NCBI RefSeq assembly: GCF_003334385.1
Contig: NZ_QOWN01000013.1
Strand: one strand, 5' to 3'
DNA length: 64,000 nucleotides
Source of the DNA: Escherichia coli
GTDB lineage: Bacteria > Pseudomonadota > Gammaproteobacteria > Enterobacterales > Enterobacteriaceae
Positions 55,059 to 56,429 of the stretch are shown piece after piece (positions within the stretch are counted from its first letter, which is position 1; every line of letters begins with the position of its first letter). The notes below the pieces were generated by a model, which saw nothing but the letters and a program-made list of their open reading frames with translations, did no database searches and was not told the DNA's origin. The position numbers were made by a program, and so were the translations under genes.

Positions 55059-56429
55059 ATGGAATTATCCTCACTGACCGCCGTTTCCCCTGTCGATGGA
55101 CGCTACGGCGATAAAGTCAGCGCGCTGCGCGGGATTTTCAGCGAATATGGTTTGCTGAAATTCCGTGTACAAGTTGAAGTACGTTGGCTGCAAAAACTGG
55201 CCGCGCACGCAGCGATCAAGGAAGTTCCTGCTTTTGCTGCCGACGCAATCGGTTACCTTGATGCAATCGTCGCCAGTTTCAGCGAAGAAGATGCGGCGCG
55301 CATCAAAACTATCGAGCGTACCACTAACCACGACGTTAAAGCGGTTGAGTATTTCCTGAAAGAAAAAGTGGCGGAGATCCCGGAACTGCACGCGGTTTCT
55401 GAATTCATCCACTTTGCCTGTACTTCGGAAGATATCAATAACCTCTCCCACGCATTAATGCTGAAAACCGCGCGTGATGAAGTGATCCTGCCATACTGGC
55501 GTCAACTGATTGATGGCATTAAAGATCTCGCCGTTCAGTATCGCGATATCCCGCTGCTGTCTCGTACCCACGGTCAGCCAGCCACGCCGTCAACCATCGG
55601 TAAAGAGATGGCAAACGTCGCCTACCGTATGGAGCGCCAGTACCGCCAGCTTAACCAGGTGGAGATCCTCGGCAAAATCAACGGCGCGGTCGGTAACTAT
55701 AACGCCCACATCGCCGCTTACCCGGAAGTTGACTGGCATCAGTTCAGCGAAGAGTTCGTCACCTCGCTGGGTATTCAGTGGAACCCGTACACCACCCAGA
55801 TCGAACCGCACGACTACATTGCCGAACTGTTTGATTGCGTTGCGCGCTTCAACACTATTCTGATCGACTTTGACCGTGACGTCTGGGGTTATATCGCCCT
55901 TAACCACTTCAAACAGAAAACCATTGCTGGTGAGATTGGTTCTTCCACCATGCCGCATAAAGTTAACCCGATCGACTTCGAAAACTCCGAAGGGAATCTG
56001 GGCCTTTCCAACGCGGTATTGCAGCATCTGGCAAGCAAACTGCCGGTTTCCCGCTGGCAGCGTGACCTGACCGACTCTACCGTGCTGCGTAACCTCGGCG
56101 TGGGTATCGGTTATGCCTTGATTGCATATCAATCCACCCTGAAAGGCGTGAGCAAACTGGAAGTGAACCGTGACCATCTGCTGGATGAACTGGATCACAA
56201 CTGGGAAGTGCTGGCTGAACCAATCCAGACAGTTATGCGTCGCTATGGCATCGAAAAACCGTACGAGAAGCTGAAAGAGCTGACTCGCGGTAAGCGCGTT
56301 GACGCCGAAGGCATGAAGCAGTTTATCGATGGTCTGGCGTTGCCAGAAGAAGAGAAAGCCCGCCTGAAAGCGATGACGCCGGCTAACTATATTGGTCGAG
56401 CTATCACGATGGTTGATGAGCTGAAATAA
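55059..56429 (+). CDS. purB: Adenylosuccinate lyase
   Basis: 456-aa [47 protein letters not shown]... Confidence 0.95.
55243..55258 (+). promoter_or_regulatory. Intragenic PurR operator in purB coding region
   Basis: ACGCAATCGGTTACCT matches the PurR box pattern ACGCAA-CG-TT-C-T; sits at purB codon 62, where the purB operator has been described. Confidence 0.55.

Follow-up and report, generated by a model that had tools for sequence, protein, structure and literature searches.

The question raised by this locus is whether a 16-bp sequence lying well inside the coding region of purB is a genuine operator for the purine repressor PurR and, if so, how a repressor bound there would act on transcription of the gene. 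PurR belongs to the LacI family, is a dimer and takes hypoxanthine and guanine as corepressors. The stretch of DNA analysed in full (64,000 nt, hereafter the window) is E. coli chromosome; the 2.2 kb around the site are 100% identical to many complete E. coli genomes, and RefSeq annotation of this identical DNA gives hflD, purB (adenylosuccinate lyase) and phoP. The purB coding sequence runs from its ATG at 55059 to its stop codon at 56429 on the + strand and encodes 456 amino acids, an assignment based on the open reading frame, the RefSeq annotation and identity with K-12 MG1655. The upstream gene hflD (ycfC) occupies 54408-55055 on the + strand (open reading frame and annotation), and the gene order is mnmA, hflD, purB and then phoPQ. 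The purB coding sequence together with the 651 nt upstream of it shows zero mismatches to MG1655, hflD and purB both being identical to their counterparts in that strain.

Direct reading of the sequence places ACGCAATCGGTTACCT at 55243-55258 on the + strand, corresponding to nt 185-200 of the purB coding sequence; it begins at the second base of codon 62 and ends at that of codon 67. The original prediction of a PurR operator at these coordinates, beginning in codon 62, is therefore correctly placed, both in the sequence and in the reading frame. The codons beneath the 16-mer are gAC (Asp, codon 62), GCA (63), ATC (64), GGT (65), TAC (66) and CTt (Leu, codon 67), and the peptide encoded across the E. 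coli box is DAIGYL. The putative operator, or PUR box, is an imperfect palindrome with its centre CG at 55250-55251; compared with the perfect palindrome ACGCAAACGTTTGCGT it matches at 12 of 16 positions, retaining the central CG and deviating at positions 7, 10, 13 and 15. Its promoter-proximal half-site, ACGCAATC (55243-55250, + strand), has seven of eight matches to the consensus ACGCAAAC, and in most orthologues this half is ACGCAAAC itself (8/8). The promoter-distal half-site, GGTTACCT (55251-55258, + strand), is weaker, with only five of eight matches to GTTTGCGT, because that consensus would need Val-Cys-Val in place of the aromatic residue and the leucine that the protein retains. In the orthologues the distal half reads G-N-T / T-[AT]-C / CT, i.e. 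GNT at codon 65, Tyr or Phe at codon 66 and Leu at codon 67, and the E. coli distal half-site is probably constrained by the codons for Gly65, Tyr66 and Leu67.

A search of the window with the perfect palindrome, allowing up to three mismatches, missed the purB site because that site carries four, and its only match, at 13092, is at chance level (0.55 expected). The palindrome search was inadequate and was therefore replaced by scoring with a position weight matrix (PWM). Table 1 of Cho et al. 2011 (PMC3159470), where the consensus is written ACGNAAACGTTTGCNT, lists 28 PurR motifs, and the matrix was built on the 27 that remain when the purB entry is left out. With this leave-one-out matrix of the 27 other sites, the purB 16-mer scores 20.9 bits and ranks first of ~128,000 position-strand combinations in the 64-kb window, where the next match reaches 16.2 bits. 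When each of the 28 published PurR sites was scored leave-one-out, the purB site came ninth. The exact tail probability for 20.9 bits is about 4e-8 per position, equivalent to 0.005 expected occurrences per window and ~0.4 per E. coli genome. The proposal that the sequence fits the PurR box pattern is thus borne out by a score typical of confirmed sites, and the association of the box with nucleotide metabolism holds, the gene being purB.

Table 1 of Cho et al. 2011 gives the purB motif as AGGTAACCGATTGCGT at 1,191,010-1,191,025 (PMC3159470). Read on the opposite strand, this motif is identical to the window 16-mer. In NC_000913.3 the 16-mer is found at 1,191,787-1,191,802, and subtraction of 777 returns exactly the published coordinates. 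We take this 777-nt offset to be the difference between MG1655 genome versions, with Cho et al. presumably working on the older one. The ChIP-chip experiments of those authors, in which PurR was tagged, define an enriched region for purB at 1,190,891-1,191,196, with an enrichment of 1.90 with adenine and no peak called without it (PMC3159470). Converted by way of the purB ATG (1,191,986 - 777 = 1,191,209), this region is equivalent to 55072-55377 of the window and lies wholly inside the purB open reading frame. The site coincides exactly with both the reported motif and the enriched region, and hence with PurR occupancy in vivo as determined by the published ChIP-chip (PMC3159470). The text of the same paper places the binding regions "only within intergenic regions" (PMC3159470), a statement inconsistent with its own purB entry, since the whole of the 55072-55377 equivalent is within the open reading frame.

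Cho et al. state that PurR at purB binds the open reading frame and blocks elongation, citing He & Zalkin 1992 (PMC3159470), and the roadblock at purB is attributed to that same work in six papers (PMC3159470, PMC4132739, PMC10310618, PMC6524683, PMC4052901 and PMC6245113). Fewer than 1% of LacI-family sites are in coding regions, and PurR in purB is named among those shown experimentally (Ravcheev et al. 2014, PMC4052901), a figure that agrees with the original prediction that an operator within a structural gene is unusual. That prediction had also linked the position of the site to the repression by roadblock described for purB, and here the exact coordinate match with Cho et al. (PMC3159470) bears it out. 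The adenine-dependent in vivo binding and the roadblock mechanism are taken from this literature in what follows. The two 1992 papers (He, Smith & Zalkin; He & Zalkin) reportedly describe an operator that overlaps codons 62-67, some 242 nt past the start site, with two- to three-fold repression; these details are consistent with the site observed. The 16-mer is the already published PurR operator in purB, so that its identification is correct and already known.

Starting 184 nt past the purB ATG, the operator cannot overlap any promoter that yields a translatable purB mRNA. Any such promoter must be located in or before hflD, at least 184 nt upstream of the operator, and any start site giving such an mRNA is separated from the operator by no less than about 190 nt; the operator is thus clear of the footprint of initiating RNA polymerase, which is the geometry of a roadblock. 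Because the operator is clear of these promoters, repression has to act post-initiation or at a distance. A consensus scan for sigma-70 promoters gave none in 54300-55400 on either strand, so no internal promoter is evident that bound PurR might occlude. The sequence CGTAAT at 54996-55001 is, by eye, a weak and unsupported -10 candidate. Scoring with the PWM gave no second PurR-like site above 10.3 bits in 52586-55242 or further downstream in the window; orthologous loci that bear a box likewise have exactly one each. With no second box near hflD or purB, looping lacks a partner site.

We consider it highly probable (about 93%) that the 16-mer is a functional PurR operator within the purB coding sequence that acts as a roadblock to elongating RNA polymerase. 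Results of this analysis are the sequence and its score, the identity with the published site and the selection at the DNA level (see below). When purines are plentiful, the PurR-corepressor complex would bind the imperfect palindrome at 55243-55258 and, positioned about 190 nt or more past any promoter expressing purB, would obstruct the elongating polymerase, with the expected outcome of partial rather than complete repression of adenylosuccinate lyase. Trailing polymerases and ribosomes can push through roadblocks (PMC4132739), and such pushing, in combination with the weak half-site, probably explains the modest repression. The site would represent a compromise of two codes, in which the proximal half stays near the consensus while the distal half must encode Gly/Ala/Asp/Val, then Tyr/Phe, then Leu, and in which codon choice is held at the best PurR box that the peptide allows.

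The comparison set comprised 80 purB loci across Gammaproteobacteria, codon-aligned and scored with the same PWM. One strong box (19.4-22.8 bits) occurs exactly at nt 185 in 16 of the 18 Enterobacterales-labelled loci and in four of the five Pasteurellaceae; its carriers include E. albertii, Citrobacter, Enterobacter, Mangrovibacter, Pectobacterium, Brenneria, Rahnella, Photorhabdus, Budvicia and Yersinia, and the Enterobacterales-labelled loci from which it is absent are those of Arsenophonus and one uncultured genome. The peptide encoded under the nt-185 box differs between loci, and at every locus with this box the actual codons reach the maximum PWM score possible for that locus's own peptide. 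The codon-usage-weighted probability of such maximum-score coding is 0.0015-0.02 per locus, random recodings averaging 3-10 bits.

For an analysis of third positions, Enterobacterales were picked on taxonomy, whether or not they carry the site. Of the 452 five-codon windows in purB, the one spanning codons 62-66 is the most conserved at third positions (entropy of 0.22 vs a gene mean of 1.09 bits), and codons 62, 64, 65 and 66 vary in amino acid among Enterobacterales. Codon 65 is always NNT and almost always GNT (Gly, Asp, Ala or Val), being ACT (Thr) in Arsenophonus and Haemophilus seminalis, which lack the site; the amino-acid change at this codon falls on box position 10, where the motif is degenerate. 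Silent sites that are kept while the amino acids drift are the signature of selection on DNA and not on protein. Averaged over the full 16 nt, entropy does not stand out (rank 163 of 1353), owing to the amino-acid variation, and confinement of the signal to third positions and PWM score is what a constraint at the DNA level would predict. In five sampled E. coli strains, none of the polymorphisms touches the 16-mer. An Rfam scan of the window returned nothing at purB, which rules out a known RNA element as the source of the conservation there.

PurR is reported in three orders, the other orders lacking it (PMC4052901), and the boxes follow this distribution, with one strong box per locus in most Enterobacterales, Pasteurellaceae and Vibrionaceae. 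The 44 loci of other orders (190 kb) have no conserved box and gave two matches of at least 16 bits, both in Marinobacter daepoensis, with 18.7 bits at nt 185 of purB (peptide DANAFL) and 16.9 bits at -802. The Marinobacter codons at nt 185 are not the maximum-scoring set; a peptide like DANAFL can yield a decent PurR score by chance, and the two matches may be due to chance or to a regulator with an RbsR/PurR-like motif. No PurR-like box of at least 13 bits was found anywhere in the purB locus of Arsenophonus, Ca. Photodesmus, Orbaceae or the uncultured Enterobacterales genome, and the lack of a box in these host-associated or reduced-genome relatives would fit a loss of PurR regulation.

These comparisons bear directly on whether the match could be a by-product of the PurB amino-acid sequence, with no regulatory role. 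An aromatic residue at codon 66 and Leu67 are widely conserved, and Marinobacter, of an order reported to be without PurR, reaches its 18.7 bits at the same codons with DANAFL. Random synonymous recodings of DAIGYL, however, average 5.1 bits against the actual maximum of 20.9 (P = 0.003), the maximum-score codons recur in every site-bearing locus of Enterobacterales and Pasteurellaceae, and nowhere in the gene are third positions better conserved, despite the variable amino acids. As the published ChIP-chip peak and motif also fall exactly at the site (PMC3159470), we regard this possibility as already effectively refuted and its probability as close to nil. It is very unlikely, too, that the site is mainly the target of another LacI-family protein with a similar motif, for example the paralogue RbsR, from which PurR arose while keeping a very similar DNA motif (PMC4052901). 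The ChIP was performed on tagged PurR and gave a peak only with adenine (PMC3159470), the gene belongs to purine biosynthesis, and the site is found only in PurR-bearing orders though RbsR is more widespread (PMC4052901); moreover, the citing literature reports purR-dependent regulation of purB.

An alternative that accepts PurR binding is that repression takes another route, by looping to a promoter-proximal site, by occlusion of an internal sense or antisense promoter within purB, or by destabilisation of the mRNA. A precedent is lacO2 in lacZ, the other well-known intragenic LacI-family operator, which works mainly by looping. PurR, however, is dimeric and is without the tetramerisation helix of LacI, and the absence of a second PurR-like site above 10.3 bits near purB or hflD, with only one box at each orthologous locus, argues against a loop. 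Occlusion is disfavoured by the consensus scan, which gave no promoter-like element on either strand of 54300-55400. The 1992 work reportedly included something of the kind of in vitro transcription with PurR that gives transcripts truncated at the operator. With the roadblock also attributed to He & Zalkin 1992 throughout the six papers cited above, we consider these other routes very unlikely, and repression by a roadblock to elongation remains our preferred reading.

In Vibrionaceae the nt-185 box is gone, and each locus except that of the symbiont Photodesmus has one strong box elsewhere. Counted from the ATG, four Vibrio species carry this box at -89 or -91, V. hannami, Grimontia and Salinivibrio at +52, and Aliivibrio at +148. 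The intragenic boxes are written in maximum-scoring codons in Grimontia, Salinivibrio and Aliivibrio and in near-maximum codons in V. hannami, and the vibrios with the upstream box encode the same peptide at +52 without a box. Haemophilus seminalis has no intragenic box but carries ACGAAAACGTTTTCCT (20.7 bits) at -667 from the purB ATG, apparently upstream of hflD. This far-upstream box resembles the PurR site of hflD-purB in H. influenzae Rd, which is located at -26 of hflD (PMC3739930), and suggests that in H. seminalis the operator may have moved from the gene interior to the operon promoter.

From the pattern of sequence across these loci we tentatively propose, at somewhat less than even odds, that a PurR box in the purB frame has been selected repeatedly at different codons, with the amino-acid substitutions at nt 185 steered to those positions where the motif is degenerate, and hence that leaky roadblock control is itself the selected trait and that the repressor site constrains the evolution of PurB. 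Were this so, leaky control might plausibly have been selected because AMP synthesis from salvaged purines requires PurB as well, and a repressor site would measurably constrain the evolution of the protein beneath it. The turnover of boxes, with repeated intragenic boxes, is the only part of the analysis that might be new; its novelty is modest, and some of it may have appeared before in Ravcheev et al. 2002 or RegPrecise. Only two points are mildly new, namely the tuning at codon level and the changed placement of the box in Vibrionaceae (-89, +52 and +148).

Compared with known systems, the element is the same as the PurR operator of E. coli K-12 purB, there being no difference in the 16 bases, the gene, the codons or the genome coordinates. 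Typical PurR operators, such as those of purF, purT, purHD and purL, share the motif and have PWM scores comparable to that of purB, but overlap the -35 to -10 region and block initiation (PMC3159470), whereas the purB site is 184 nt inside the open reading frame. The autoregulatory operators of purR are closer relatives, as they bind the same repressor through the same type of 16-bp box (AGGTAAACGTTTGCCT in Table 1 of Cho et al.), are located past the promoter, reaching into the open reading frame, and are described as blocking elongation like purB (PMC3159470). They belong to a different gene and, going by the title of Rolfes & Zalkin 1990, comprise two control sites, in contrast to the single site of purB. 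The lacO2 site of lacZ is also a LacI-family operator in a coding sequence and is named beside purB among the rare (<1%) intragenic sites (PMC4052901). It is an auxiliary operator that loops to O1 through tetrameric LacI, whereas the purB site has no partner and PurR is dimeric. In the CcpA and CodY roadblocks of Bacillus subtilis and in engineered LacI roadblocks a repressor bound past the start site likewise hinders elongating polymerase and represses in part (Hao et al. 2014, PMC4132739; PMC10310618). The proteins and organisms differ from those at purB, CcpA being a member of the LacI family and CodY not, and the dependence on Mfd described for the Bacillus cases is not known for purB. The purB operator is the classic natural case of a repressor roadblock inside a coding sequence, and a real, experimentally established regulatory element was here identified and correctly placed from raw sequence. 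It makes a useful worked example of overlapping codes, in which the codons are kept at the best operator as the amino acids drift, and opens no new question.

The second-best PWM match in the window is AAGAAAACGTTTTCGC at 17-32, with 16.2 bits on the + strand and 15.3 on the - strand. It lies inside the 3' end of ispE, whose coding sequence ends at 224, and is 343 nt upstream of the prs ATG at 375. This is very probably the known far-upstream PurR site of prsA (He et al. 1993, cited in PMC4052901), in which case both matches above 16 bits in the 64 kb (purB and ispE/prs) correspond to known PurR targets. The distance from prs to purB in the window is about 54.7 kb. The same gap in MG1655 is roughly 15 kb larger, although purB and hflD are identical in the two, and the shorter gap would fit a strain without the e14 prophage. 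The sole Rfam match at the gathering threshold in the window is the C0299 sRNA (RF00119), at 31542-31620 on the - strand with 111.9 bits.
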